A stretch of DNA of 20,000 nucleotides, from IMG/VR virus record IMGVR_UViG_3300030106_002045; one strand, given 5' to 3'. The position numbers and the translations under genes were made by a program. Origin of the DNA: an uncultured virus (IMG/VR IMGVR_UViG_3300030106_002045). Its lineage: Duplodnaviria; Heunggongvirae; Uroviricota; Caudoviricetes. Below are positions 585 through 16,105 of this stretch, piece after piece. Numbering within the stretch: the first letter of the stretch is position 1; each line of letters starts with the position of its first letter. Below the pieces are notes generated by a model, which made no database searches, had not been told where the DNA came from, and was given only the letters and a program-made list of their open reading frames with translations.

Positions 585-950
585 TTATATTTGTTGAGAT
601 ACTATTTCAGGGCTGCTAATTGTTGCAAGTACCTCATCGTCATTTATTAACACCATTTTTACCTTTTGTACAGATATTTTTGCACCAGCATATCTACCAT
701 AAATTACCCAATCACCAACTTTGCACCAAGGTTTTCTTTCAGAATAACATTCTGGACCCATTGCTATTACTTTTCCAACAGAATTTAATAAACTCTGCAT
801 TTCTTTATTTGAATCAGGTAGATATATTCCACCTTTTGTTTTATCCATACTTCCTTTAGGTCTAATTAATATTCTATAACCAGCAGGTTGTGGAACTTCT
901 TTTGGTGTTTTTATAGAATCATCTGTTGCCCATTGTTCGTTACTTATCAT
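585..950 (-). CDS. groES: Phage-encoded co-chaperonin GroES (Cpn10)
   Basis: Cpn10 motifs PAGYRILIRP, KTKGGIYLP, GKVIAMGP, KVGDWVIYGRYAG, LINDDEVLA. Confidence 0.93.
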   Translation of the reverse strand: MISNEQWATDDSIKTPKEVPQPAGYRILIRPKGSMDKTKGGIYLPDSNKEMQSLLNSVGKVIAMGPECYSERKPWCKVGDWVIYGRYAGAKISVQKVKMVLINDDEVLATISSPEIVSQQI

Positions 951-1581: not shown

Positions 1582-3890
1582 TACTTATCACGTTTTGCAA
1601 CTCTTGAAGCTGTTTCAACAATTTTAGCTTTTACTTCTGCGTCCTTTCTAGCTTGAGTTCTTTCTTTGTCTTTAACACCTTCAGCAAATCTCGCTTTTCT
1701 AATATTTAATTCTTCTGCTTTTAATTGTAATTGTGCAGCATCTTTTTGTCTTTCCATTTGTTCTTTTTGTTGTTCTGGACTTGGTGGCATAGACCCCATT
1801 AAACCTTGTGCAGCTTGTGCTGCTGCAGCAGCTATTCTATTTTCTTGTTCGATATTAATTTCTTGACTTGGCTCATCATTCATTTCTTTGTTAAATTCAC
1901 CAGATGAAGTAGGCATACCTTCTGGTACTTGAGCTTGCATTTGTTGTTGGTATAAATATGCCATATGTTGTCCTATATGAGCCATCATTGATGGATATAA
2001 AACTTCTTTAGCTTGTGGATTACCACCAAATCTTGGATCATTTATAAATTGTTGATGTACTATTATATGAGCTTGATGATCTTGATCTTCAAAAACTTTA
2101 ATTGGTTTACCATTTAATAATGCCATGTTTTCTGATACTGGATCTCGTCTTGGTGTTTCTTCATCTTCTATCATAAGTTCGTTATATTCTGGAACATTTA
2201 AAGCTTGTAAAAATCTTCTTGTTGCTTCTTTTACATTAATTATTTGTGGTGAAGATTGAGCTAGTTGTAAACCTGTTTGTGCTAAAGCTATTCTTTGTGC
2301 TTGAGAAAAAATATTAGGATCACTTACTGGTATTACATCTACTGCATCACTAAAATCTTTTCTTCTTATAATTTTCTTTTCTCCAATTACATCATATGGA
2401 TATTCATCATCTAAGTATTCTCCATTTAATTCATAAATTAATTTAAATTCTCTACCTTGAGCTTGGTGTAATCTTTTATGTATAGCACTAAATACTTTAG
2501 AACCTTGTTCTATTAAAGCGATGGTGGTTCCAACTGGACCGGAACCAGCGGAATCACCAATCATTGCATCTGCTATTGATGCAAAACGTCTTCCTGATTC
2601 AGTTAAAACGCCTAAAAGCTGTAAGAGAGTAGGTGATGGTTCTTTGAAAGGAAGAGGGATAAAACTCTTTCTAAGATCATCACCATAGGCTTCGACTTCT
2701 ACCCATTCACCAGGTGAAACAGTTATATCTCCACCTTCTATTCTTGCTCCTTTAGCTCTAAATCCTCCATTGAGGTTGGCAAAGGCAGCTGAATCTAGTA
2801 GAGCACGAAGTGCTCCAGTGCTTGCATGTTGCAGACCGCCGATCATTTGGATTAGGCCGAAACCATAAAAACCTAAACCAGGAAGATATTTATAATGTAT
2901 AAAATAAGTTCTTTTTCTTTTTAATGGATCATCTTCTTTCCAATTTCTTCTTATTGCTAAAACTACAGTGCTATCTTGGTCAACTGTTACAATGTAAGGT
3001 AAAGCTAAACCATTTTCATCTTCTCCTATATCTAAATTTGCGTGTATTTCTAAAATTGTATGTATCTTATCAGACATACTAGGTGTCATACCTTGTAATC
3101 TTTCCATTGTTTGTTCAACAGTTCCACCTTGATTTGAAGTTGTTTCAGTTTTACTTAATGGTACATCTTTATAAAATCCTTCTATTTGTCGTCTTTTAAT
3201 TTCGTTTCTTGAAAGTTTCATTACTTGAGTATATCTTTCAGATGTTTCTAAATCTGTATTATCATATGATATTACAAAATCTTCTGCTGGTACAAATACT
3301 GAACAAATTCTATCTAAAGAATTATCAAAATATATTTTTTTAAATGCAGAACCAGCTAAAGATAAATAAAATAACAACTGATCTAATTCATTAAAGTAGT
3401 CTTTTATTTGATTTGTTACTTGCCAATTCATAAAATCTTGAACACGTTGTGCTTGCTCTATTTTTTTATTTGAAGATTTACCAATCACTTGTGTTTTTAC
3501 TGGACCACCAGACGGAAAAAGTTCTGCTATTGCTCTTGCTTGAAACTGAGTTGCTGCCTCAGCCATTAATGGATGATGTACACCAGAAGCTCCCGGGAAA
3601 GGATCTTGTCTATCTTCTACAACGACACCTAACATTTTAAGACCTTTAGAATATTGATCTTCCCAATCTTTTCTAGATGATTTATCATCTTGATAAGCTT
3701 TAACTAAATCTCTACCAATACTATTTACTTCTTGATCTGTTAATTCTTCTGCTAAATTAGAATAATGATCTGATTCAAAAGCTTCTTCTTCTTTATCTGT
3801 TAAATCTGAATCGACTTCTACTTTAACTTTTTTACCTTTATCATCAGTAAATTCTAAATTTTTTTTATCTAATTCTACTTCTAAAGCCAT
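1581..3890 (-). CDS. Portal protein
   Basis: 769 aa. Motifs SRKDWEDQYSKGL, PFPGASGVHHPL, GSAFKKIYFD, YLPGLGFYGFGL, PVGTTIALIEQG and a C-terminal coiled coil. Lies between terminase and head genes. Confidence 0.88.
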   Translation of the reverse strand: MALEVELDKKNLEFTDDKGKKVKVEVDSDLTDKEEEAFESDHYSNLAEELTDQEVNSIGRDLVKAYQDDKSSRKDWEDQYSKGLKMLGVVVEDRQDPFPGASGVHHPLMAEAATQFQARAIAELFPSGGPVKTQVIGKSSNKKIEQAQRVQDFMNWQVTNQIKDYFNELDQLLFYLSLAGSAFKKIYFDNSLDRICSVFVPAEDFVISYDNTDLETSERYTQVMKLSRNEIKRRQIEGFYKDVPLSKTETTSNQGGTVEQTMERLQGMTPSMSDKIHTILEIHANLDIGEDENGLALPYIVTVDQDSTVVLAIRRNWKEDDPLKRKRTYFIHYKYLPGLGFYGFGLIQMIGGLQHASTGALRALLDSAAFANLNGGFRAKGARIEGGDITVSPGEWVEVEAYGDDLRKSFIPLPFKEPSPTLLQLLGVLTESGRRFASIADAMIGDSAGSGPVGTTIALIEQGSKVFSAIHKRLHQAQGREFKLIYELNGEYLDDEYPYDVIGEKKIIRRKDFSDAVDVIPVSDPNIFSQAQRIALAQTGLQLAQSSPQIINVKEATRRFLQALNVPEYNELMIEDEETPRRDPVSENMALLNGKPIKVFEDQDHQAHIIVHQQFINDPRFGGNPQAKEVLYPSMMAHIGQHMAYLYQQQMQAQVPEGMPTSSGEFNKEMNDEPSQEINIEQENRIAAAAAQAAQGLMGSMPPSPEQQKEQMERQKDAAQLQLKAEELNIRKARFAEGVKDKERTQARKDAEVKAKIVETASRVAKRDK

Positions 3891-4174
3891 TATGCTTTCC
3901 TTTTAGTTTTTTTCTTTCTGCCATCTGGTCTTCTGTTTCTATCTCGTTTACCTTTTAAAATATCTCTATCAACTTTAGCAGCTTTACCACCCGTTAATGC
4001 AGAATTTACTCTAGCCATAGCCCATGCTTGTGGGCTAACACCTTTTCTATGACCACTTGTTCTATATGCAGCCAAGCCTCTATTATAAATTGCTCTTATT
4101 TTGGAAGTTGATACACCAGTTTTTTTTGCTTTGTTTCTAATCGCTGTTGCGGTACTCGATTTTCTTTTAGCCAT
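3890..4174 (-). CDS. Small basic protein (resembles DUF5824-type family, from memory)
   Basis: Motif IYNRGLAAYRTSGHRKGVSPQAWAMARVNS; 94 aa; coupled to portal start. Confidence 0.7.
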   Translation of the reverse strand: MAKRKSSTATAIRNKAKKTGVSTSKIRAIYNRGLAAYRTSGHRKGVSPQAWAMARVNSALTGGKAAKVDRDILKGKRDRNRRPDGRKKKTKRKA

Positions 4175-4421
4175 ACATTCTCCTAAATCTTTTATTATGT
4201 ATACTTTCTTTTTTAGATCCTACAAATTTTCCACCTTTTTTATCTCCAGGTAAAACTCCAGAACCTTTATTATCTTTGTTTAATCTTTTAATAGCAGCTT
4301 TTCTTGCACTACGAAGTTTTCCAGAAGTGCCAGTTAAATATTTTTTAGGTACCTTTTTACCTTTTTTTCTTTTTCTAGGTACAGATACTTGTTTAGTAAA
4401 ATTAGCACGTGACATTGGCAT
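4167..4421 (-). CDS. Small basic hypothetical protein
   Basis: 84 aa, very K/R-rich, overlaps neighbours in operon. Confidence 0.7.
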   Translation of the reverse strand: MPMSRANFTKQVSVPRKRKKGKKVPKKYLTGTSGKLRSARKAAIKRLNKDNKGSGVLPGDKKGGKFVGSKKESIHNKRFRRMYG

Positions 4422-5310: not shown

Positions 5311-5616
5311 CTAACATCTCCACCGCCTTCTAGCTTGTCTTATTCTAGAATTAGGATTATTTCTTGTTTTGGCAGAGCTTCTTTTTAATTGACCTAGTGA
5401 TCTTGCACAATATGATTTTCTTCTTTTTGCTGCTTTACTACCTGGTTTAACTTTACCAGTTACTGCCATTTTTAATTTAGAACCAGGATTAGCTCGTCTA
5501 TAAGCTTTAATTCCTGCTCTTGTCATACCAGCACCTTTTTTAGTAGGTCGATAATATTTTTTTCTTCTTGGTATATCTCCAGTTCTTTTTCTAGGTCTTA
5601 TTCTTGTTCTAGCCAT
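5311..5616 (-). CDS. Arg/Lys-rich basic protein (resembles DUF6321-type family, from memory)
   Basis: Motifs GIKAYRRANPGSKLK, KRRKSYCARS and terminal RRRWRC. Confidence 0.72.
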   Translation of the reverse strand: MARTRIRPRKRTGDIPRRKKYYRPTKKGAGMTRAGIKAYRRANPGSKLKMAVTGKVKPGSKAAKRRKSYCARSLGQLKRSSAKTRNNPNSRIRQARRRWRC

Positions 5617-6361: not shown

Positions 6362-6634
6362 TTACTTTTTTTTATTTAAATTAATCGGAATAACTTTATC
6401 TTTATTTCTTTTGATAATTTTAGAAATTCCTGGATAATTTTTTGCTTTTCCTTTGTAAATAACTCCACCTTTACCAAAATGATCCTTAACAAGCTCATCT
6501 TTTTTGGCAATCATTTCTCTGTCTTTTGATTTACCTTCTTCATAGCCATCATCATCTAACATTTTAGCTTTAGATGTATCTTCAAAATCTACATCTAAAA
6601 TTTCTTTTGTTACGTCTTTTGTAGTTTTAGCCAT
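6362..6634 (-). CDS. Hypothetical protein
   Basis: 90-aa ORF, TAATG-coupled. Confidence 0.7.
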   Translation of the reverse strand: MAKTTKDVTKEILDVDFEDTSKAKMLDDDGYEEGKSKDREMIAKKDELVKDHFGKGGVIYKGKAKNYPGISKIIKRNKDKVIPINLNKKK

Positions 6635-6792
6635 TATCTTTTTTTCCGTTTCTTCATTTTTAATTCACGTACTATTCTTTTCTTCTCAGCTTTAAGATTT
6701 TTTTTACCTTTTTTAGTTTTTGCTTTTTCAGCATCAACTCTGCCAAGTTCTTCAAGTCTATTCATACGTCTTGTGTTTTTTCTTTTCTTCAT
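6634..6792 (-). CDS. Tiny basic protein (52 aa, below ORF-track cutoff)
   Basis: MKKRKNTRRMNRLEELGRVDAEKAKTKKGKKNLKAEKKRIVRELKMKKRKKR*; coupled at both ends. Confidence 0.7.
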   Translation of the reverse strand: MKKRKNTRRMNRLEELGRVDAEKAKTKKGKKNLKAEKKRIVRELKMKKRKKR

Positions 6793-6986
6793 CATCTTTT
6801 TTTCTTGCCTTTCCTTTTAATTACACCACGTGCAATTAAAATATCTTTTTTAGTTACTTTGCCATCTCCAGACATATCTGGAAATTTGCCTTTTTTCTTT
6901 TTCTTTTTTTTCTTCATCATCTTTCCAGTCATTTTAGAATTTTGCATTCTACCTTGACCAGAGCCTGCGCCTGCTGTCATTTTCAT
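6792..6986 (-). CDS. Basic protein with a single EF-hand-like loop
   Basis: Poly-Lys followed by PDMSGDGKVTKKDIL (DxxxDGxVxxxD). Confidence 0.7.
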   Translation of the reverse strand: MKMTAGAGSGQGRMQNSKMTGKMMKKKKKKKKGKFPDMSGDGKVTKKDILIARGVIKRKGKKKR

Positions 6987-7231: not shown

Positions 7232-7583
7232 CTTTCAGATCCTCCGTTGTACTTATTTTTTTGGAAACTATACTTTGAAATATCGAGTGTGTAAAGGTCG
7301 GAAGCATTAATTCGCTAATAGGATTATCGACATGGCCTGTAGACCACGAAATACATGGTACTCCTTTCTGGTCCCAAGCAACCAAAGCATAACCTTTTAC
7401 ATCAATTTTATCAGTAATTTTTATACAAGCATCGTGAAAAGCTTGAACAACTTCGTCATTTTGTTTATGTACAATTTCTTTTTTGGTAGGCCTTCGAGGA
7501 GTTACTCTCCATCTATCAAGAGTAATAATGTTTGTTTTTGCGGTATTTTCTTTTTTCGTCATAATCATCGTCCTCAGGATCAT
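7224..7583 (-). CDS. Hypothetical protein (start may be 7568 or 7562)
   Basis: ORF overlapping the terL 3' end; globular-looking C-terminal part. Confidence 0.65.
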   Translation of the reverse strand: MILRTMIMTKKENTAKTNIITLDRWRVTPRRPTKKEIVHKQNDEVVQAFHDACIKITDKIDVKGYALVAWDQKGVPCISWSTGHVDNPISELMLPTFTHSIFQSIVSKKISTTEDLKDE

Positions 7584-9018
7584 CTGGATGTGTTACTAAA
7601 AACCCATCACGCATTCTCATTAAAGCTTGTATACAAGTATCATGTATATCATCGTGCTTTCCATATGGGAATTGAGATGATTCTTCAATTACACTCTTAG
7701 TCCAATCTTCATCCAAAGTAAACACTAATCCACCTTCAAACATTGCAGCTACACTATGAGTTCTTGAAACTTTATCTCTTTCTGGAGTATAAGTAACTAC
7801 AGGTACTCCTGACCTTCTCATATCTTGTATAAGAGATTGACCACTAGCTCTTTTTTCTATTAATACTTGATCGGGCATCCATTCATCATAACTTTCTTGC
7901 GCACGTTTTCTTAAATCTGGATATTCTAATCTTTCTTTCCAGGCGTCTAATAATAAACATGCAGCATATGGAGTATTGTTTTCATCTCTTGCTGTAAATA
8001 CTCCCCATGTAGTACAAGCTGAATAGTCAGCAGAGGATCTTGTACTGAATGCTGTATCATAAGATTGTACAACATAACCTAATGTAGGAATTTTATCTCC
8101 TTCGTAAATATTCCACCAATCTTTTTTTATAATAGAACCTTCTTCGTTAGAGGGTCTTTGTTGATAAAGAGATTGCCATACACGTTCTCCTACTGTATTT
8201 TGTATTTTATCTAAATCTTCTTTTGAATAAGCATCTGGCCATAAAGCATTTCCTTCTTTATCAATCGCAGGTAAATCTAAAATTTTCCAATCTTCACTAG
8301 ATTCATTTAAAATATAACCCGCAAGGTCATCTTGGTGCCAACGAGTTTGTATTACTATAACTTTACCACCTGGTTGTAATCGAGTATATGCTACAGATTT
8401 ATACCACTCTAATAAATTTTTTCTTTGTACTTCTGATTCTGCGTCCTCTCTTCCTTTTATAGGATCATCTATAATTAATAAATGCGCACCTCTACCAGTA
8501 ATAGCTCCGCCTGCACCGACTGCTGCATAAGTTCCTCCATGTATAGTATGAAATCTTTTAGCTGATGTACTATCTGATCGAAGGGCCACTTGTGGAAATA
8601 CTTTGTTATAATCGTCAGATTGAAGTTGATTACGGACCTTTCGTCCAAAGTCATCAGCCAGTTCTTGAGCATATGTAGATTGAATTACAAATTCGTTTGG
8701 ATTATTACCAAGATACCAAGCAGGAAAAAATTCTGAGCATAACATAGATTTACCATGTCGAGGTGGCATAAAGACTGCTAGCCTTTTAATATCTCCTTTT
8801 TCTAAACTTTCTAAATTTTTTGCAATTAATTTTATATGCGCAGGTTCTTTATAACCAGGATACATATGTTTAGCATAAGCTAAAAAATTATTACGAGCTT
8901 TATAAGTAGATAATAAATTATTTAAATGTTCAATTAATTCACCTGCACGTTTATCACGTGTCTTTTGGTATATCTGAATAGCTGACTTTAATTTCTCTTT
9001 GATTTGAACTTCTTGCAT
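7516..9018 (-). CDS. terL: Terminase large subunit
   Basis: Walker A MPPRHGKS, Walker B LLIIDD, coupling motif QTRWH, nuclease motifs SYDTA, IEKRASG and FPYGKHDDIHD. Confidence 0.96.
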   Translation of the reverse strand: MQEVQIKEKLKSAIQIYQKTRDKRAGELIEHLNNLLSTYKARNNFLAYAKHMYPGYKEPAHIKLIAKNLESLEKGDIKRLAVFMPPRHGKSMLCSEFFPAWYLGNNPNEFVIQSTYAQELADDFGRKVRNQLQSDDYNKVFPQVALRSDSTSAKRFHTIHGGTYAAVGAGGAITGRGAHLLIIDDPIKGREDAESEVQRKNLLEWYKSVAYTRLQPGGKVIVIQTRWHQDDLAGYILNESSEDWKILDLPAIDKEGNALWPDAYSKEDLDKIQNTVGERVWQSLYQQRPSNEEGSIIKKDWWNIYEGDKIPTLGYVVQSYDTAFSTRSSADYSACTTWGVFTARDENNTPYAACLLLDAWKERLEYPDLRKRAQESYDEWMPDQVLIEKRASGQSLIQDMRRSGVPVVTYTPERDKVSRTHSVAAMFEGGLVFTLDEDWTKSVIEESSQFPYGKHDDIHDTCIQALMRMRDGFLVTHPDDPEDDDYDEKRKYRKNKHYYS

Positions 9019-9808
9019 TTTGTTGACCCATTCCTAATCCACCACTTTCTTTATATAACTTAAATTTTTCTGAAAGTAAAAAAAACGGTTGTCTTTTTTT
9101 CAAGATAACTTCTTTCCAAGCTTCTGATGGTTGTCCTATCTTATCTAGAAACCAAGCTAGTTTTGAAGCTTCTGCTAATCTTAGATTTACCATTTCTTGA
9201 TGATGTAGGTCTCCTTTTTCTTGTGGATTACCCTCGTTATATTTTCTTAATCTAAAAGTTTCATCATTATTATTACCAGTTATATCTGCTCTATCGTGAA
9301 TTACATTAATATCAACTTCTACCATTATATCTAATGCATAAGCAATTTCAGAGAGCCACGCATCATTTTGACCGTGTAGACTTATATGATCTAAACATCT
9401 AAACCAATCTCTTGGAAAACATGGAAAGATACTATAAGGATGTCCAGTTTGTTCTTTAAACTTTAATAAACAAAACTGATCTTCAAAATCCATAATCTTA
9501 TCATCCCAATTCTTAGTACACATTAAAGCATCGTCATTAAAGAACATTATCCATTTACCAGTTGAATATTGAGCTAATGTATTATTATATCTATGTAAAT
9601 TTTCGTAACCTATGGGATTAAATTGTAAAGCAATTTGATTTGGATATTTTGAATCTTTTAAATATTTAAAAGTTTCTAAGTCATCTTTATCTACACCGAA
9701 TAAGAATTGTAACTTATCGGGCTCTCTTGCATTATTGATTAATGACTCTACAGCTTTTTTTAATAAGAGCAATCTTTTACGAGTTGGTAAAAGTATAGAT
9801 ATGTTCAT
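8954..9808 (-). CDS. GT-A fold (family 2-like) glycosyltransferase; an alternative in-frame ATG at 9889 has an AGGAG SD
   Basis: N-terminal ISILLPTRKR strand, GVDKDD, and DxD-like WIMFFNDDAL; overlaps terL start by 65 nt. Confidence 0.8.
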   Translation of the reverse strand: MNISILLPTRKRLLLLKKAVESLINNAREPDKLQFLFGVDKDDLETFKYLKDSKYPNQIALQFNPIGYENLHRYNNTLAQYSTGKWIMFFNDDALMCTKNWDDKIMDFEDQFCLLKFKEQTGHPYSIFPCFPRDWFRCLDHISLHGQNDAWLSEIAYALDIMVEVDINVIHDRADITGNNNDETFRLRKYNEGNPQEKGDLHHQEMVNLRLAEASKLAWFLDKIGQPSEAWKEVILKKRQPFFLLSEKFKLYKESGGLGMGQQNARSSNQREIKVSYSDIPKDT

Positions 9809-9901
9809 GGATCCACAGTACTCAAATATAAATACAATAAAACAAAAATATGCCCGCCTTCCTCCCTGATACAACCAGTCTCCCGGCATATGTATCAACT
9901 C

Positions 9902-10543
9902 CTATTCTTTTTCTTTTATCTCGTAAAAAAATCTATCTGTATCATCTGTTACCCAATCTTTGTTTTCTACATTCCAGTCGTTTGTTTGGACTTTATAGTC
10001 TGGCACTTCGCTTCTCGTAGTGAATGAATTAACATTCCATAATACTCTATTATTTGGCTGAGCAGCAAAATTACCATTGTCAAGCTCCAATATATGAGCA
10101 CATTTATGCTCCTGAGGAATTTCAGAATGATCTGTATCAATAACATTGGGGTCAGGGTGACACCAATCAACAGTAAACAGATACTCACCTGTATAAAGTT
10201 TTTTATCTTTACCAAAATATTTAGCTCTTTGTCCTGTTAGAAAAGCAAACTCAGTAATGCTATGATGATAATCAAAGCTATTCCACAGCTCAAGTAAGTC
10301 GTTTTGCATATCTGGCACTTCTCGCCTTTCCATCTTCGCAGAAAAGAAGGCAGCAATTGGCAACCGCCAAAAGCACGCACCGTTCGGTAACATGATATTA
10401 AAAAGGATACCACGACCCTGTATACTTGTGAGACCGAAGATAACACAATCTTCGCTTTCTCCATGATGTTTTTGTTGGTCATATAAATACTCCTTGCGTA
10501 TTTGACAATATATTGGTGGAATGCTACTATTTAAAAAGGCCAT
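9902..10543 (-). CDS. Conserved-type marine phage hypothetical protein
   Basis: 213 aa, natural composition; motifs GACFWRLPIAAF, GEYLFTVDW, EHKCAHILELDNGNFAAQPNNR; function not recognised. Confidence 0.8.
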   Translation of the reverse strand: MAFLNSSIPPIYCQIRKEYLYDQQKHHGESEDCVIFGLTSIQGRGILFNIMLPNGACFWRLPIAAFFSAKMERREVPDMQNDLLELWNSFDYHHSITEFAFLTGQRAKYFGKDKKLYTGEYLFTVDWCHPDPNVIDTDHSEIPQEHKCAHILELDNGNFAAQPNNRVLWNVNSFTTRSEVPDYKVQTNDWNVENKDWVTDDTDRFFYEIKEKE

Positions 10544-10721
10544 TGTAAAGCTATATTACAAAAAAAAATATTTTTCTAGAGAAATTTATACGCATATAAG
10601 TCATTCTACACTAACTCTAGCTCTACCTCTAAGACTAACGCCAAATCGCCGCAAACTTTATACGAATTTTTATAAATTAAACTTAATACGAATTTTTAAA
10701 AAAAGTGAGAGAAAAAAAGAT

Positions 10722-10758
10722 AAAAAAAAACTAGCGTAAAATTAATTACGCTAGTTTT
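10722..10758 (-). terminator. Rho-independent terminator of the 129-aa gene
   Basis: Inverted repeat AAAACTAGCGTAA(10727-39)/TTACGCTAGTTTT(10746-58) with a 9-nt U tract on the minus strand, 15 nt after the stop codon. Confidence 0.85.
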
Positions 10759-10773
10759 ATTATTTAAATAATA

Positions 10774-11163
10774 TTAAAGACTTTTTATTTTTTCTTCGAA
10801 GAATTTAATATTTTCGATTATCGAATTATCGACTTTATTTTTTTTAATAAACTCTTTATTCGAGTTAATTAAATCTAAATATAAATCTTTTTTAGATTTA
10901 TCGATATACGAATTTAAATCGATTAATAAATTTACTTTTTTAAATCGATTATTTCTAGTCGTATCGTATTCTATATCGACTTTTCTATAATCGTTATTAA
11001 AAGCGTTTTCTATAGTAGTAGAAAATTTCGCCTTCTCGTAAATTATAAACGACTTAGTTTTATCTCGTTTATTATTAAATAATCTAAATAAAACTTTTTT
11101 ATCTTTAAACTCTCTAAAAGATAAAGCTATTTTATTCTCGATTATATTTTTCTTAGTAGTCAT
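10774..11163 (-). CDS. 129-aa protein in a CA/TG- and CC/GG-purged cassette; putative paralog of the 13649-14014 protein
   Basis: Has its own promoter, SD-like AGAAAGCGAG and terminator; gapless similarity of residues 30-71 to residues 56-97 of the 121-aa protein. Confidence 0.8.
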   Translation of the reverse strand: MTTKKNIIENKIALSFREFKDKKVLFRLFNNKRDKTKSFIIYEKAKFSTTIENAFNNDYRKVDIEYDTTRNNRFKKVNLLIDLNSYIDKSKKDLYLDLINSNKEFIKKNKVDNSIIENIKFFEEKIKSL

Positions 11164-11231
11164 TAGCTTTCTCGCTTTCTAATTCTTAAACTATTTTAAT
11201 TATTAAAATATTTAAATTTAAGAATTAACGA

Positions 11232-11260
11232 ATATTAAAAAATTTTTTTTAAAAAGTAAA
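11232..11260 (-). promoter_or_regulatory. Sigma70-like promoter of the 129-aa gene
   Basis: TTTACT(11260-55)-N17-TAATAT(11237-32). Confidence 0.65.
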
Positions 11261-11513
11261 TAGTTAATTTCTGTTGTTTTCGCTTGTAGATAGAAAGAAC
11301 AAAGATAGAACACTCGTTCTCGTTTCGTTCTCTTTAAAATAAAGTAAACAAAATCGATAACGTAAAAAATAAAAAAATAAAATCTTTTAATAAATAAAGT
11401 AACATAAGTATTATAATAAATTATTTATATCATTTTTATACGTTTTAATTTTAATTTATTAATTATTCTGTTTTGTCGGAAAAAGCTCTATCCTTAATTT
11501 TTTTTATTTCACG

Positions 11514-11615
11514 TGATCCTTGCGGATCAGCCCTGATCAACTAGATACTAGGATCAAGCTGGATCATCTAGGCTCATGCCACAACAAGCAACAGTCGCCT
11601 GCCACAACAAGCAAC
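11514..11615. repeat. Phased GATC cluster plus 16-bp direct repeat; candidate pac/terminus element
   Basis: GATC at 11515, 11525, 11535, 11552 and 11562 (GCTC at 11572); TGCCACAACAAGCAAC at 11577-92 and 11600-15; immediately downstream of terS. Confidence 0.7.
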
Positions 11616-11620
11616 CGCCG

Positions 11621-12070
11621 TCAATCTAGTTTATGTTCTGATTTGATTTGTTCTAGGTACTTGGCCAAAGCATCATCGTCCATGTTGTCTAGTGTTGAGT
11701 GCTGTACTTCCTTCTTTTCAACAAGGAACCCTAATAGCTGAGACTTCAACCTTATCGCATTGACTGCTGCTGTATATTGTTTCTTGCCACAAGCATCAAC
11801 ATACAGTTTATCTAGCTTTTCAACCTCTTTTGACACAGACTCACTGGTCAAGCGCCTAGTGTCAACACGCAATCTGTCTATATACTGGAGGATTTTATCT
11901 TTCTTTAAGTTCCGGGCAGCTTGTACGTGAGCAGAAGTTTCAGAGTAACCTGCTTCAACAGCCGCTTGTCTCTTACCTTTTCCTTGCGCTATACCCTCAC
12001 AAAACTTTTTTTCCATTGAGGATAAAGTCGCTTCGTTGGTTTGATGTATTTGGTCAATAGTTATCGCCAT
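11621..12070 (-). CDS. terS: Terminase small subunit
   Basis: HTH motif LSSMEKKFCEGIAQG..QAAVEAGYSETSAHVQAARNLKKDKILQYI, and AVNAIRLKSQLLG oligomerisation segment. Confidence 0.85.
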   Translation of the reverse strand: MAITIDQIHQTNEATLSSMEKKFCEGIAQGKGKRQAAVEAGYSETSAHVQAARNLKKDKILQYIDRLRVDTRRLTSESVSKEVEKLDKLYVDACGKKQYTAAVNAIRLKSQLLGFLVEKKEVQHSTLDNMDDDALAKYLEQIKSEHKLD

Positions 12071-12112
12071 ATTTATCCTAATATAGCGATTATTTTATGA
12101 TTGTAAATTGTA

Positions 12113-12394
12113 TTATAATCTCGATTTATGCCATGAAATTATATCTTTAACACCATGAAAATTTTTAAATTTAACATGCACACATCCTGTATGTCCATCA
12201 TCAATGTCAACAATAGTTTCGGGTACAACAGTTTGTTTACTATGGTAAACTGCTATGTTATAGCTTTCGTTTTTACCTCGACCTTGCAATCTGAAATCTT
12301 TTTCGTCTTGTTCAGTCATTACATAATCGCCATCAAGTATGCAATCTTCTACATATTTGTTTAACTTTTGTTTCATTATAGCTACAGGGTCCAT
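12113..12394 (-). CDS. Hypothetical early protein
   Basis: 93 aa; AGAAAGGAG SD. Confidence 0.75.
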   Translation of the reverse strand: MDPVAIMKQKLNKYVEDCILDGDYVMTEQDEKDFRLQGRGKNESYNIAVYHSKQTVVPETIVDIDDGHTGCVHVKFKNFHGVKDIISWHKSRL

Positions 12395-12428
12395 TAGTTC
12401 TCCTTTCTATATTTATTTATAATTATAA

Positions 12429-12457
12429 ATTATAGAAAGAAGAACAATATTAAACAA
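12429..12457 (-). promoter_or_regulatory. Sigma70-like promoter
   Basis: TTGTTT-N17-TATAAT upstream of the gene starting at 12394. Confidence 0.6.
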
Positions 12458-12464
12458 TTATCGT

Positions 12465-12668
12465 TTATTGTAATCTAACTTTTATGTTGTATTTGCTTAA
12501 ATCTTCAGGGTAATCGTTGTACCCTGCTTTAACAACAATAGTGTTTTCTCTAAAGTCTGTAATGTAATCTTTTAACTCTTTATCAGTAACACTACCCTCT
12601 TGATTTCTTCTTTCTGCACGTTCTAACCAAGTTTTTGCAACAACATCTGGTACTACTCTTTTGCTCAT
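12465..12668 (-). CDS. Hypothetical protein
   Basis: 67 aa, adjacent to upstream stop. Confidence 0.65.
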   Translation of the reverse strand: MSKRVVPDVVAKTWLERAERRNQEGSVTDKELKDYITDFRENTIVVKAGYNDYPEDLSKYNIKVRLQ

Positions 12669-12669
12669 A

Positions 12670-12897
12670 TTAACCTACCTGTTCTTGGATAGTAATAACC
12701 TCAACATCTACTTCTTTAACATTTTCTTGCTTACCAAGACCATCTGACATAACAGATAACTGTGTATGAAATGCTTGATAGATGTCGTGAAAAGTTTTAC
12801 CGTAACAATAAGCAGTTATAAAGATTGTAGTATCTTGATAACCCTCTACTTTGCTGGTGTCTTTATAACGAATAACACCTTCACATTTTTTACTCAT
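12670..12897 (-). CDS. Hypothetical protein
   Basis: 75 aa; TAAGGAGG SD. Confidence 0.7.
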   Translation of the reverse strand: MSKKCEGVIRYKDTSKVEGYQDTTIFITAYCYGKTFHDIYQAFHTQLSVMSDGLGKQENVKEVDVEVITIQEQVG

Positions 12898-12962
12898 AAG
12901 CCTCCTTAGCTTTTAATTTATTTATAATTTTAAGATAAAGAATAGATTTCATTTAAATACAA

Positions 12963-13337
12963 TTAAAGAGTTCGAGCAACATATTTAGACCATAATTCGT
13001 TTATATTGCTGTGCTCTATTAATTTTTCGTTATGAAAATCTACTTGCCAAATTTTAACCATCAGATCATTATATTTAAAATAAACGTCATACCGATATGA
13101 TAAATCTCCATGACGGTGAGGTCCTTCTGTTAGTCTAGCACCACCAGCTCTTCCATCTTTTGCTACATAACAAAAAGCAGCAGCAAATTCATCAGCTTCA
13201 AATCGTGGAAATTGCCAAGCTGATTCTTTGGCTTTATTAATCATTTGTAAAGCATTAGCAGGGTAACCATCGTAGTGATAGTAAACACTAAATGCACCAT
13301 CTTTGTCTTTAAAAGTGTAACATGCTCTAGTTGACAT
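12963..13337 (-). CDS. Hypothetical protein of the widespread phage 'MSTR...YxHxDGYP' type
   Basis: MSTRACY...VYYHYDGYP...YRYDV; GAAAGGA SD. Confidence 0.75.
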   Translation of the reverse strand: MSTRACYTFKDKDGAFSVYYHYDGYPANALQMINKAKESAWQFPRFEADEFAAAFCYVAKDGRAGGARLTEGPHRHGDLSYRYDVYFKYNDLMVKIWQVDFHNEKLIEHSNINELWSKYVARTL

Positions 13338-13479
13338 TGTTATCCTTTCTAAAAGATTCAGTTAATCTTTCTGATCTTTTTCTTTCTTCTCTTGCCTCTA
13401 GCCAGTTTATAATTGCAAGTAAAGTAACACCTACAAAGATAATAAATAAACCAGCTAATATTAATAACTCAAACAACAT
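13327..13479 (-). CDS. Small single-pass membrane protein (50 aa)
   Basis: MLFELLILAGLFIIFVGVTLLAIINWLEAREERKRSERLTESFRKDNNVN*; AAGGAG SD. Confidence 0.65.
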   Translation of the reverse strand: MLFELLILAGLFIIFVGVTLLAIINWLEAREERKRSERLTESFRKDNNVN

Positions 13480-13648
13480 ATCTTTCTCCTTTTTAAAGTG
13501 ATAGCCGACCCTTTCGTTTGTTACATAGACACTTATTAATGTGCCAGCCTGCTATCACACTCCTTTCTTTCCTATAGGGTTATAGCCACAAAGAATAAAC
13601 TCTGTGGCTATAATTATAGAATAAATTAAAATAATCATAGTTATACAA

Positions 13649-14014
13649 TTATTTTAAATCGTAAGTTGCTTTAGGCGTCTTATTAGGCGCACCAGCAGCA
13701 TCGATAACTTCGATTGCAATAAATCCACGTTCTCTATCCCAATCAAGATCAATAGTCTTTCCACCAGCCTTTAAAAATTCTCTAATTTTCATGCCAGTTT
13801 TGTATAGACTAAATCTCTTGTATCCACCAGATCCTTCTCTTTTAGGATTTTTTGGAACTTTGATTTGGATTTTAGCATCTCTATCATACTTATATGTACC
13901 CTTGAATTGTTTAGGATCCATAGCCTTACTTTTTACTTTAGCCTTAGGTTTAACTACTTCTGACTTTTTAGTCTTAGGAGTTACCTTAGGTTTTGTAGCC
14001 AAGTTAATAGACAT
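13649..14014 (-). CDS. Basic putative DNA-binding protein (Lys/Pro-rich arm plus NPKRxGS...DLDWD domain)
   Basis: 121 aa; histone-H1-like N-terminal arm; compact domain NPKREGSGGYKRFSLYKTGMKIREFLKAGGKTIDLDWDRERGFI; AGAAAGGAG SD. DNA binding is an inference. Confidence 0.7.
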   Translation of the reverse strand: MSINLATKPKVTPKTKKSEVVKPKAKVKSKAMDPKQFKGTYKYDRDAKIQIKVPKNPKREGSGGYKRFSLYKTGMKIREFLKAGGKTIDLDWDRERGFIAIEVIDAAGAPNKTPKATYDLK

Positions 14015-14088
14015 AACACTTTCTCCTTTCTATATTTATTTTATATATTTACTATATAAGCAACCAATTATAAATTAAAACAATAAAA

Positions 14089-14319
14089 TTAAACCTTAGC
14101 TTTATTAGTGTGAGTAAATCCTTCTTTTTTAGCAGACTTAACTCCTGCTAATCTTTTATTATCATCAGATTTATTTTCTTTTTTACTAAATTCATCAAAA
14201 TTTTGGTCAAGCCAATTATCAAATTCAAGTCTATCAAAATCTTCATCAATGAGACCCATATCTTTAGCTTTATCAAAGTATTTATCGACACCTTTATCTG
14301 TTTTAGGAAATTTAGCCAT
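14089..14319 (-). CDS. Hypothetical protein
   Basis: 76 aa, acidic middle part. Confidence 0.65.
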   Translation of the reverse strand: MAKFPKTDKGVDKYFDKAKDMGLIDEDFDRLEFDNWLDQNFDEFSKKENKSDDNKRLAGVKSAKKEGFTHTNKAKV

Positions 14320-15571: not shown

Positions 15572-16105
15572 TTATTTATACCACTCAGGTACTTGATTTT
15601 TCCATGTAGCAAACTCTTTCTTGTGAGCCATGTAAAAAGTTCTATAAGCTTCAACAGTATCTTCTTTTTTACACTCATCTGGCATACATTGAGGTGGTTG
15701 AGTAAAATTACCTATATCGATGTTTTTAGGAAATTGATAAATATGTTGAATTAATTTTTTATAAGTATCGTGGACTTTATCATATCTTTTAGTGTATTCT
15801 TTACAAAGAGCACACCACAAATGTAATAACCACCTATAATTATCTTTATTTAATCTACACCAAATAGCACATGGGTGATTATAATATGCTGCTTTATATA
15901 AAATATTTTCTTTTTCGTCAGGTAAAACCCAATATTTTACCATAGTTTTACCATTTACTGATAATCTAGTTTGTTCCTCGCCATCTAATATTCTATGAGC
16001 AGTAGAGAGCAGTTGTGCGTATTCAACAATCATTTTAGTTACGTGTTTATCGCAATGATACTCGGCGCATTTATCAGTATGGAAGTCTAAATAAAAAATA
16101 TTCAT
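15572..16105 (-). CDS. Pyrimidine-dimer DNA glycosylase / endonuclease V-like protein
   Basis: MNIFYLD...HCDKHVTKMIVEYAQLLSTAH...LYKAAYYNHPCAIW...EYTKRYDKVH...PPQCMP...AYRTFY pattern. Confidence 0.78.
   Translation of the reverse strand: MNIFYLDFHTDKCAEYHCDKHVTKMIVEYAQLLSTAHRILDGEEQTRLSVNGKTMVKYWVLPDEKENILYKAAYYNHPCAIWCRLNKDNYRWLLHLWCALCKEYTKRYDKVHDTYKKLIQHIYQFPKNIDIGNFTQPPQCMPDECKKEDTVEAYRTFYMAHKKEFATWKNQVPEWYK

Follow-up and report, generated by a model that had tools for sequence, protein, structure and literature searches.

Why is one gene of a phage written almost without a quarter of all dinucleotides, and is its product related to a normally coded protein encoded in the same stretch of DNA? 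The locus belongs to a marine phage (IMG/VR IMGVR_UViG_3300030106_002045, Caudoviricetes), of which a stretch of 20,000 nt, hereafter the window, was analysed; it is a podovirus related to HTVC023P-type pelagiphages. A first-pass annotation had proposed that the purged gene (P0001, 129 aa) is a recoded paralog of a second gene of the window (P0002, 121 aa).

A purged gene between the terminase genes

The P0001 gene is found between the genes for the small and large terminase subunits, and a GT2-like gene lies two genes downstream of its AT-rich island. The features of the locus are collected in Table 1.

Table 1. Features of the purged locus and of the P0002 gene (window coordinates)
Feature	Position	Strand	Remarks
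Purged 129-aa gene (P0001)	10774..11163	-	ORF and translation
Normally coded 121-aa gene (P0002)	13649..14014	-	ORF and translation
AT-rich island, 976 bp, GC 20.7%	10545..11520		Composition; sole such island in the window
Strictly purged core	10706..11272		CA/TG only in the start ATG; one GG
Intrinsic terminator after the P0001 gene	10727..10758	-	13-pair stem, then T run
Putative sigma-70-type promoter, TTTACT/17 nt/TAATAT	11232..11260	-	Read by eye; 8/12 consensus positions
Conserved upstream element, repeated AGAAC boxes and CA-rich block	11272..11330	-	Just beyond the strict purge
Small terminase subunit gene	11621..12070	-	PF03592, E 2.2e-8; directly upstream of the island

The strict core takes in the P0001 gene with its 5' leader and terminator, and the putative promoter as well. 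The assignment of the promoter is putative: its TTTACT block is kept in an alignment of 48 upstream sequences, and the candidate is absent from the output of a consensus promoter scan. The AGAAC/CA-rich element could be an operator, and across 54 non-redundant loci CA peaks at -150 to -100 relative to P0001-type genes. Just upstream of the unit, after the small terminase gene, five (T/G)GATC(C/A) repeats form a conserved cluster, which could be a packaging site and hence lie near a genome end.

The premise of the first-pass annotation, that this gene is purged, holds. No CA or TG occurs over 455 bp (10706-11161), and only one GG/CC is present in 10649-11478. The gene contains two CA, TG, CC or GG, compared with 39.0 +/- 4.4 in 5000 mononucleotide shuffles (minimum 21), and its sole TG is the start codon; the whole island has 27 such dinucleotides where 100.6 +/- 7.0 are expected. 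In the purged unit the rule is that, on both strands, C never stands before A or C. Without CA, CC, TG and GG there are no codons for His, Gln, Cys, Trp, Pro, Gly or internal Met, so that the loss of Pro, Gly, Trp and Met described previously is correct but the purged set is wider, taking in His, Gln and Cys.

Given its own protein and the codon usage of the window, the P0001 gene should have 27.5 +/- 4.2 forbidden dinucleotides rather than the 2 seen, whereas in the same test the P0002 gene has 60 against 60.3 expected. This bears out the proposal that a constraint on the nucleic acid overrode the composition of the P0001 protein, and the purge is almost certainly exerted at the nucleic-acid level and under selection. 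TC and GC are retained (17 TC in the gene; 15 GC in the island, o/e 1.47). General restriction-site avoidance was considered and rejected, because restriction-type palindromes (ATCGAT, TTCGAA, TCGA) persist within the gene.

Probable distant homology of P0001 and P0002

Both proteins are basic. P0001 (pI 9.7, net charge +11) uses 14 amino acids and is laid out as a winged-helix-like core followed by a C-terminal helical hairpin, with a pLDDT of 89.7 in the AF2 model; public metagenomes contain 1507 clusters of its relatives, grouped at 90% identity. P0002 (pI 10.1, net charge +18) begins with a disordered, K/P-rich tail (residues 1-38, 12 of them K or R); the winged-helix-like core that it shares with P0001 occupies residues 48-101 or so. 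No above-threshold match for P0001, P0002 or their relatives was obtained in curated families (Pfam, PHROGs, PDB sequences), the neighbours of the proteins in the Atlas are unnamed viral clusters, and the models of both proteins have chain 3i3l_A (residues 430/446-555) among their weak matches. Judged by their sequences, the two proteins belong to a previously unannotated family whose core spans some 45 residues (N-P-K-R-x-G-S ... D-x-x-[YW]-D). In the models this core looks like a winged helix. Both proteins probably bind nucleic acid, a prediction indirectly supported by pI values of 9.6-10.1 and by the H1-like tails of relatives.

The ungapped 42-residue alignment on which the proposed paralogy was based (residues 30-71 of P0001 against 56-97 of P0002) was reproduced, with its 8/42 identities and with all the described replacements (P>N, W>Y, M>T, G>K/S/D/Y/N). 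Taken alone, the pair is at chance level: the BLASTP E is 0.083, and the Smith-Waterman score of 35 is equalled by 16-22% of 2000 shuffles. The similarity becomes significant at the level of the family profiles. Profile-profile comparison (hhalign, 23 against 39 sequences) recovered the same register with a probability of 84% and E 7.4e-6, matching 45 columns (25-69 with 51-95); over both runs the probability was 84-89% and E ranged from 2.1e-6 to 7.4e-6. The score on rerun was 40.0, about 14 standard deviations above 100 column-shuffled controls (mean 10.2, sd 2.1, maximum 19.2), and a reversed-alignment control scored 9.7.

Searches with single-family HMMs were less even. An HMM of the 129-aa family, run on 1623 ORFs, gave E 0.002 for the 121-aa ORF, and 7e-6 and 2e-5 for homologs of it. 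In the other direction, the 121-aa-family HMM did not reach the 129-aa ORF (E 3.9) but did reach normally coded members of the 129-aa family (E 9e-4 and 5.5e-3). One such member, P0215, bridges the two proteins (E 5e-23 to P0001, E 6e-6 to P0002). Predicted secondary structures coincide in order and spacing at an offset of 26 (E23-26/E48-51, H37-45/H63-68, H51-56/H77-82, H61-67/H87-96), and the genes are syntenic in 20/80 loci found with P0001 and 11/28 found with P0215. That two lysine-rich small proteins resemble each other by chance or convergence would suit the insignificant single pair, the one-sided HMM miss and the shortness of the aligned core, but it is highly improbable in the face of the shuffled controls, the bridging sequence, the coincident structures and the synteny. 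We conclude that P0001 and P0002 are, by their profiles, very probably distant homologs.

The 121-aa gene is nevertheless not the nearest normal copy, since the P0215-type paralog is far closer to P0001. In related phages this normal paralog stands in tandem beside the AT-rich island in 25/28 loci; this window lacks it. Its place in relatives bears on the scenario of the first-pass annotation, in which the purged gene would be an immediate-early, motif-free copy on the first-entering DNA, invisible to host restriction or defence for as long as an anti-defence function has yet to be made, and the 121-aa gene a later, normal copy. The unit does end in a terminator of its own and has an AT-rich leader and a promoter-like block that is conserved, the GATC-containing repeats might mark a nearby genome end, and the probable nucleic-acid binding of two basic proteins would suit such a role. 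We nonetheless consider this scenario quite unlikely. Restriction-type palindromes remain in the gene, which sits between terminase subunit genes rather than at a demonstrated genome end, the tandem copy is closer to P0001 than the 121-aa gene is, and in a relative classed as having direct terminal repeats (G002) the island is 13.7 kb into the record.

The purge among relatives

The purge is real, sharply bounded, unique in each genome and held by ongoing selection. CA/TG is absent from 48 of 80 relatives of the P0001 gene and occurs no more than once in 60, at a divergence of about 0.67-0.7 for dS and with a median dN/dS of 0.20 (1475 pairs); the protein is under purifying selection and is still predicted to fold. 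In the 54 non-redundant loci the density of forbidden dinucleotides is close to zero from about -100 (before the ATG) to +50 (past the stop). One clear island was found in the window and in each of three relatives (G002, G004 and G005); in G003 there is also a second island, which is marginal (209 bp). Members of the family differ by degrees in their fraction of forbidden amino acids, which lies between 0% and 18%; the background is 22.6%.

These data can be set against the idea that the loss of dinucleotides is a functionless by-product of mutation, the island being either an AT-rich, horizontally acquired moron or a locus subject to hypermutation, such as a heavily transcribed unit undergoing context-specific cytosine deamination. 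The island is moron-like in its terminator and in a composition unlike that of its neighbours, CA, CC, TG and GG are exactly the pairs that deamination of C in CA or CC contexts would erase if it acted on both strands, and relatives carry a gene of the dCMP-deaminase family. We regard this idea as very unlikely, because forbidden pairs have not been created among relatives some 0.67 substitutions per synonymous site apart and because the boundaries of the purge are sharp and conserved. Further, the replacements separating P0001 from its normal paralog are mostly not C>T/G>A transitions (e.g. Q>E, H>D, P>N, M>K), and the deaminase of the relatives is of the nucleotide (dCMP) type.

The bounds of the purge are also those of the putative transcript, so that a cause at the RNA level fits them equally well. 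Under such a constraint the mRNA would have to be free of CA, UG, CC and GG: it could thereby survive a low-specificity endoribonuclease active in infection, or it could be an unstructured, AU-rich message without alternative starts (every NUG start codon contains UG) or Shine-Dalgarno-like GG runs. The strict zone from -100 to +50 matches the putative promoter-to-terminator unit, the one TG of the gene is the start codon, and pelagiphage infection reportedly leaves cells deprived of ribosomes. Downstream of the terminator, only sense-strand CA/CC stay rare and TG/GG come back. Two pairs of relaxed lineages (L043/L053 and L070/L075) have regained sense CA (8-10) more than TG (2-3), which hints at a strand-specific component, while a third lineage (L001) shows the reverse pattern, with TG regained over sense CA. 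Against this, the four dinucleotides disappear as reverse-complement pairs, which is what a constraint on double-stranded DNA predicts and what RNA would need two coincidences to produce; the putative promoter, which is not transcribed, is also inside the strict zone; and we know of no RNase with such a four-dinucleotide specificity. Overall, we judge an RNA-level constraint unlikely.

A unit possibly kept clear of DNA modification

The explanation that we tentatively favour is that the P0001 transcription unit is kept free of the contexts used by the phage's own putative, dinucleotide-specific DNA modification. The phage would modify its DNA after replication at, for example, the T of TG and the C of CC-type contexts, and a short transcription unit between the terminase genes, rewritten as a whole so as to lack them, would remain 'naked' DNA that can be read or bound without modification. 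The fuller version, in which the whole genome is marked at TG/CC-type contexts, exactly one unit is left naked, a 14-amino-acid protein is the price and normal paralogs are kept elsewhere, is more doubtful.

Candidate enzymes are found in relatives. A C5 DNA methyltransferase (PF00145, E 1.6e-28) is encoded in G006, outside this window, and G002 has a similar 349-aa ORF; the target motif of the methyltransferase is not legible from its sequence. Close relatives also encode a thymidylate-synthase homolog, a dNMP-kinase-like protein, a dCMP deaminase, a MazG-like protein and sugar-nucleotide enzymes. PF00303 was matched in 3/5 records searched (G002, G003 and G006), the other two being 66-71% complete fragments. 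The thymidylate-synthase gene adjoins that of the dCMP deaminase, with PolA next to both in G006. The product of the thymidylate-synthase homolog may be either 5-hmdUMP or plain dTMP.

Other modification enzymes were sought without success in defined sets of proteins. A permissive Pfam search for aGPT-Pplase and 5mYOX domains found none in four proteins, namely two unassigned ones of about 347 aa, the kinase-like protein and a 213-aa protein of the window. The first two (346/348 aa), encoded in the relatives beside the thymidylate-synthase and kinase-like genes, had no Pfam match even at E up to 10, and the kinase-like protein, considered as a possible 5-hmdU DNA kinase, matched, weakly, thymidylate kinase and P-loop models alone. 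The 213-aa protein is PHROG 3704, labelled 'ferredoxin', with no match in Pfam or among solved structures. No TET/JBP-type dioxygenase was recognised among the scanned proteins of the window and its relatives.

According to published reports, phage T-dioxygenases act post-replicatively at NTG or NTC (PMC13229309), T hypermodification in M6, ViI and phiW-14 prefers TG/TC (PMC6449724), and dinucleotide context sets the target of phage C5-MT/5mYOX/GT systems, the C5-MT context being GpC (bioRxiv 2023.12.21.572611). Thymidine-hypermodification genes are described for some HTVC023P-type clades (PMC9599517). Against the modification explanation, the island tolerates GpC, and the gene retains TC, the second of the T contexts in those reports.

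Implications

Phages are well known to avoid motifs in their genomes, but as a rule they do so incompletely and the sites are longer. The P0001 gene is almost wholly free of a quarter of all dinucleotides, and this is maintained among relatives in which most synonymous sites have been replaced. It offers a natural test case for the smallest amino-acid alphabet that a folded domain can tolerate, with seven amino acids lost and a confident predicted fold, and related phages with tandem normal and purged copies provide a ready-made experimental control. The locus is also a testable pointer to a dinucleotide-reading process (DNA modification, nuclease or sensor) in phages of SAR11-type marine bacteria, and it brings to light a small, winged-helix-like family not annotated before, of which the 129-aa branch alone accounts for the metagenomic clusters counted above. 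If the fuller version of the modification reading is correct, P0001 would be a first example of a natural protein whose alphabet has been narrowed by an epigenetic code, and the unit would be a self-marking 'unmodified window' that serves regulation or the takeover of the host, in a phage group that is among the most abundant in the ocean.

Comparison with known systems

The closest known counterparts of the predicted core are winged-helix (wHTH) domains, as in PriA, MarR, Fur, ScpB and RiPP recognition elements. A K/P/A-rich disordered tail joined to a small globular domain of winged-helix type recalls linker histone H1 and H1-like proteins (Chlamydia Hc1/Hc2, AlgP); unlike in these, the tail of P0002 is N-terminal and short, and DNA binding is here a prediction from sequence. 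For the long relative P0235 there is a sub-threshold hit to Pfam HC2 (E 8.6e-5), which is confined to low-complexity sequence. T7 gene 0.3 (Ocr), with its early leader, is the model behind the early-copy scenario: this small counter-defence gene lies on the leading DNA, is the first to be expressed and encodes a very acidic DNA mimic. An anti-restriction protein of the Ocr type is ruled out here by the basic charge of both proteins.

As in phage modification systems guided by dinucleotide context, where a single context (including TG) can set DNA chemistry, relatives carry a C5 methyltransferase and a thymidylate-synthase-type module. The present case differs from those published, as far as their available text goes, in that CA/TG and CC/GG are avoided and not GpC or TC, and in that the modification is here putative. 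The same text does not describe a region escaping modification by lacking the context for C5-MT/5mYOX/GT, T-dioxygenase or thymidine-hypermodification systems.

The P0001 unit resembles phage morons, self-contained promoter-gene-terminator inserts between late genes, in its own terminator, conserved promoter-like block, aberrant composition and site between terminase genes. Ordinary morons, though, are merely off-composition, whereas this unit lacks four dinucleotides and their absence is selected. In RNA viruses of vertebrates, depletion of CpG and UpA evades sensors such as ZAP, and there too viral genes are recoded at the dinucleotide level and codon choice is constrained. That depletion is genome-wide, partial and confined to one or two dinucleotides, while here it is near-total, affects four dinucleotides in one gene and has cost its protein seven amino acids.

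Avoidance of four dinucleotides in the island

The gene for the 129-aa protein (P0001) lies in an AT-rich island of 976 bp (GC 20.7%, against about 31% for the whole window) where the dinucleotides CA, TG, CC and GG are avoided. CA and TG are missing over 455 bp up to the start codon, and GG or CC occurs once in about 830 bp of the island region. The gene contains two of these forbidden dinucleotides, compared with 39.0 ± 4.4 in mononucleotide shuffles (minimum 21, n=5000), which rejects AT-richness alone as the cause, and with 27.5 ± 4.2 (minimum 14, n=5000) when the protein is kept fixed and codons follow the usage of the window, which rejects amino-acid composition alone. The avoidance therefore acts on synonymous sites and codon junctions. 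It also bars all codons for H, Q, C, W, P and G, plus internal M, and the protein uses 14 amino acids. Under the same codon-usage model, the gene for the normally coded 121-aa protein (P0002) has 60 forbidden dinucleotides and 60.3 are expected. The share of forbidden amino acids is graded across the 129-aa family, from 0% through 1-9% to 13-18%, and is 22.6% in nine other proteins of the window.

In the island, CG reaches 3.7 times its expected frequency. We rejected this enrichment as a binding motif since it follows from the dinucleotide rule: NNT-G and NNG-G codon junctions and NCA/NCC codons are banned, so G or T must follow codons ending in C, and A or C must precede codons starting with G. 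Across relatives the number of CG ranges from 7 to 23. GC-skew gave no sign of a replication origin at the island. The purged gene is striking, and we met no earlier description of it in the literature searched, which held nothing relevant on a modification-free phage region or on the 129-aa/121-aa family in pelagiphages and, on dinucleotide depletion of phage early regions, unrelated papers only.

Conservation of the purge in related phages

We compared 80 related loci on viral contigs (71-95% protein identity). Of these genes, 48 lack CA and TG entirely and 60 hold no more than one, and CC/GG average 0.2, while the flanks of 79 loci carry about 140-180 forbidden dinucleotides per kb (one short flank is at 322). 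The median dS of 0.67 across 1475 gene pairs indicates that synonymous sites have largely turned over and that the purge is kept by selection; the protein is under purifying selection (dN/dS 0.20). In 54 non-redundant loci the flanks hold about 20 forbidden dinucleotides per 100 nt; the density drops to 2-4 at -325 nt and beyond, and between -100 and 50 nt past the stop it is near zero. The purge is relaxed in a few lineages, chiefly through regained sense-strand CA. That it is a mutational by-product appears very improbable, given its retention in the 80 loci, its boundaries in the 54 loci and the dS and dN/dS of the 1475 pairs. One clear island was seen in each of the five records scanned (the window and the related records G002-G005, with lengths up to 61 kb), and G003 shows a further, marginal island of 209 bp.

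The near-zero zone contains a conserved promoter-like block, read by eye (TTTACT, 17 nt, TAATAT), followed by the 129-aa gene, and also a strong terminator. Just upstream of the strictly purged zone there are conserved repeated AGAAC boxes and a CA-rich block, the latter conserved at -150 to -100 in the 54 loci; together they are a candidate operator of the island gene. A cluster of GATC hexamers, conserved in a 48-sequence upstream alignment, has a layout like that of the repeated hexamers of the P1 pac site, and may be a packaging start or a regulatory array.

Homology of the 129-aa and 121-aa proteins

The first-pass annotation had described the purged gene as an apparent recoded paralog of the 121-aa gene from an ungapped alignment with 8/42 identities. 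Both ORFs and the alignment are as described, and within the aligned stretch the 129-aa protein has another residue at each P, G, W and M position of the 121-aa protein. The pair alone is not significant: BLASTP gives the same alignment an E of 0.083, and the local alignment score of 35 is matched by 16-22% of 2000 shuffles. Pairwise similarity was thus rejected as sufficient proof of homology. Relatives number 73 for the 121-aa protein and, at 90% clustering, 1507 for the 129-aa protein (39 representatives at 50%). In the profile-profile comparison that had been proposed as a check, hhalign matched the two family alignments with a probability of 84% and an E of 7.4e-6 over 45 columns (residues 25-69 of the 129-aa protein and 51-95 of the 121-aa protein), in the proposed register. 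On rerun the score was 40.0, against 10.2 ± 2.1 (maximum 19.2) for 100 column-shuffled versions and 9.7 for the reversed alignment. The window and four related records gave 1623 six-frame ORFs. With the 129-aa-family HMM, the 121-aa ORF scored E 0.002 among them and its homologs scored 7e-6 and 2e-5. With the 121-aa-family HMM, members of the 129-aa family that are normally coded scored E 9e-4 and 5.5e-3, and the purged ORF itself was not reached (E 3.9).

Normal composition is retained by diverged members of the 129-aa family. One of these, P0215, from related phages, matches the 129-aa protein at E 5e-23 (39% over 114 residues) and the 121-aa protein at E 6e-6 (37% over 41 residues). Its N-P-K-x-x-G-S faces N-N-K-R-D-K-T in the purged protein. 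This pairing involves two compensating 3-residue gaps, so the register of some ten residues at the centre of the ungapped alignment may be wrong. Neither family received a name from Pfam, PHROGs, PDB sequence searches or the ESM Atlas, and a tblastn search of 50,697 phage records with the two proteins was negative up to E 1.

A tandem normally coded copy in related phages

A search with P0215 yielded 28 loci from the related phage group. The order in 25 of them is small terminase, a normal copy (copy A), the AT-rich island with the purged copy (copy B), a homolog of the window's 213-aa gene and large terminase; the other three stop short of the island. Copy A contains 31-50 CA/TG and 18-27 CC/GG (GC 0.31-0.35), compared with 5-9 and 6-11 in copy B (GC 0.19-0.23). 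An HMM search of the window ORFs found no copy A there. The original observation holds and is extended, and its interpretation is supported in part: the idea of a normal and a recoded copy stands, but the partner is the tandem copy A of related phages, not the 121-aa gene. The 121-aa family is a third branch, more distant than copy A. Of the 80 loci, 20 have a gene of this family on the same strand, 2.5-4 kb further upstream (by hand count, 28 loci retain 2.85 kb or more of upstream sequence, and these include 19 of the 20), and one is also found upstream in 11 of the 28 P0215 loci. We claim no order of duplication and purge, because the base of the 129-aa family tree does not resolve and the composition violates the model.

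In copy A ORFs (3914-4357 in locus L088, and relatives), ATGs further upstream frequently offer alternative starts, with 20-47 extra residues of poor conservation; translation probably begins at the conserved MKK(T/Q)(E/Q)TKLPRT.

Predicted structure and function

The AlphaFold2 model of the 129-aa protein is confident (pLDDT 89.7, pTM 0.82), with elements H14-19, E23-26, H37-45, H51-56, H61-67 and E79-81 and a C-terminal hairpin of two long helices (89-108 and 113-127). That of the 121-aa protein is moderate (pLDDT 67, core 70-84), with a disordered tail (1-38), rich in K/P, followed by E48-51, H63-68, H77-82, H87-96 and E99-101. All proteins tested are basic (pI 9.6-10.1), and two longer relatives (361 and 398 aa) carry long K/A/P-rich, H1-like linkers before the same C-terminal domain. 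These features suggest that the family probably binds nucleic acid, with the reservation that the third helix carries a conserved acidic D-x-x-[YW]-D motif.

Phage and gene neighbourhood

The long ORFs of the window, a portal-size protein among them, are all on the minus strand. The large terminase shares 42-44% identity with its counterparts in Pelagibacter phages HTVC023P and HTVC027P and in phage 023Pt_psg01, and one neighbouring gene has DNA-level matches in these phages, so that the window belongs to a podovirus that is related to HTVC023P-type pelagiphages and is none of the cultured ones. The 213-aa protein downstream of the island has no Pfam match and is annotated as phosphoribosylaminoimidazole synthetase in HTVC023P and HTVC027P. 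The GT2-like glycosyltransferase ORF and the start of the large terminase gene share 65 bases.

Features of the window
Feature	Coordinates	Strand	Remarks
GroES/Cpn10-type co-chaperonin gene	585-950	-	121 aa; PF00166, E 6.6e-16; within structural module
Extremely lysine/arginine-rich small ORFs	3890-4421, 5311-5616, 6634-6986	-	53-101 aa; amid structural genes
Large terminase	7516-9018	-	500 aa
GT2-like glycosyltransferase	8954-9898	-	PF00535, E 4.8e-4, below cut-off
Conserved 213-aa protein	9902-10543	-	directly downstream of island; PHROG 3704, label 'ferredoxin'
AT-rich island	10545-11520
Strong intrinsic terminator	10758-10727		within near-zero zone
Purged 129-aa gene (P0001)	10774-11163	-
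AGAAC boxes and CA-rich block	11272-11330		AGAAC boxes: AGAACGAAACG, AGAACGAG
Five (T/G)GATC(C/A) hexamers	11520-11585		in about 60 bp after the direct-repeat hairpin
Terminator-like hairpin	11620-11589		encloses two copies of a 15-base direct repeat; directly after small terminase gene
Small terminase	11621-12070	-	PF03592, E 2.2e-8
121-aa gene (P0002)	13649-14014	-
177-aa protein	15572-16105	-	match to T4 endonuclease V-type pyrimidine dimer DNA glycosylase, PF03013, E 1.2e-6

A pyrimidine dimer DNA glycosylase is plausible in a surface-ocean phage, and the lysine/arginine-rich ORFs may encode internal or DNA-condensing proteins. Part of 9000-14100 is present in 20 of the 22 listed sequencing runs (15 studies), mostly marine or seawater metagenomes from 2014-2025, with at least half of the sampled words in five; one 2025 run, which bears a coded organism label instead of metagenome, has 59%.

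Possible cause of the purge

The four dinucleotides form two reverse-complement pairs and obey one rule, that C never precedes A or C on either strand, which points to a constraint on double-stranded DNA. A constraint acting on RNA we consider unlikely. General restriction-site avoidance was rejected, as palindromes are still present in the gene, and these also weaken the role in genome entry or anti-restriction proposed in the first-pass annotation, to which we give a lower standing still. We tentatively favour, as possible rather than probable, that the transcription unit would be kept free of the dinucleotide contexts that the phage would modify. Against modification count the boundaries of the purge and the CA/TG asymmetry, to which an RNA-level cause is suited too, the tolerance of GC and TC in the island, the failure to recognise an aGPT-Pplase or a dioxygenase among the scanned proteins, and a methyltransferase of the relatives whose specificity cannot be inferred from its sequence.

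We favour modification because of the GT2-like gene near the island, the modification-type genes of relatives, the hypermodification genes of some HTVC023P-type clades and the dinucleotide-context systems documented in phages. In two related records, G006 (L115, 7958-12412) and G002 (L113/L114), a compact module adjoining PolA holds a C5 DNA methyltransferase (11357-12412 in L115), a MazG-like protein, a 346-348-aa protein of PHROG 14998, a dNMP-kinase-like protein, a thymidylate-synthase homolog and a dCMP deaminase. The same records carry UDP-glucose dehydrogenase, an NAD-synthase-like PP-loop protein and an epimerase, and together these genes suggest non-canonical or glycosylated DNA bases. 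Passages in the cited sources place thymidine-hypermodification genes in some HTVC023P-type clades (PMC9599517) and describe phage modification governed by one dinucleotide: phage T-dioxygenases act at NTG or NTC (PMC13229309), phage thymidine hypermodification prefers TG/TC (PMC6449724), and phage C5-MT/5mYOX/glycosyltransferase systems act in a GpC context (bioRxiv 2023.12.21.572611).
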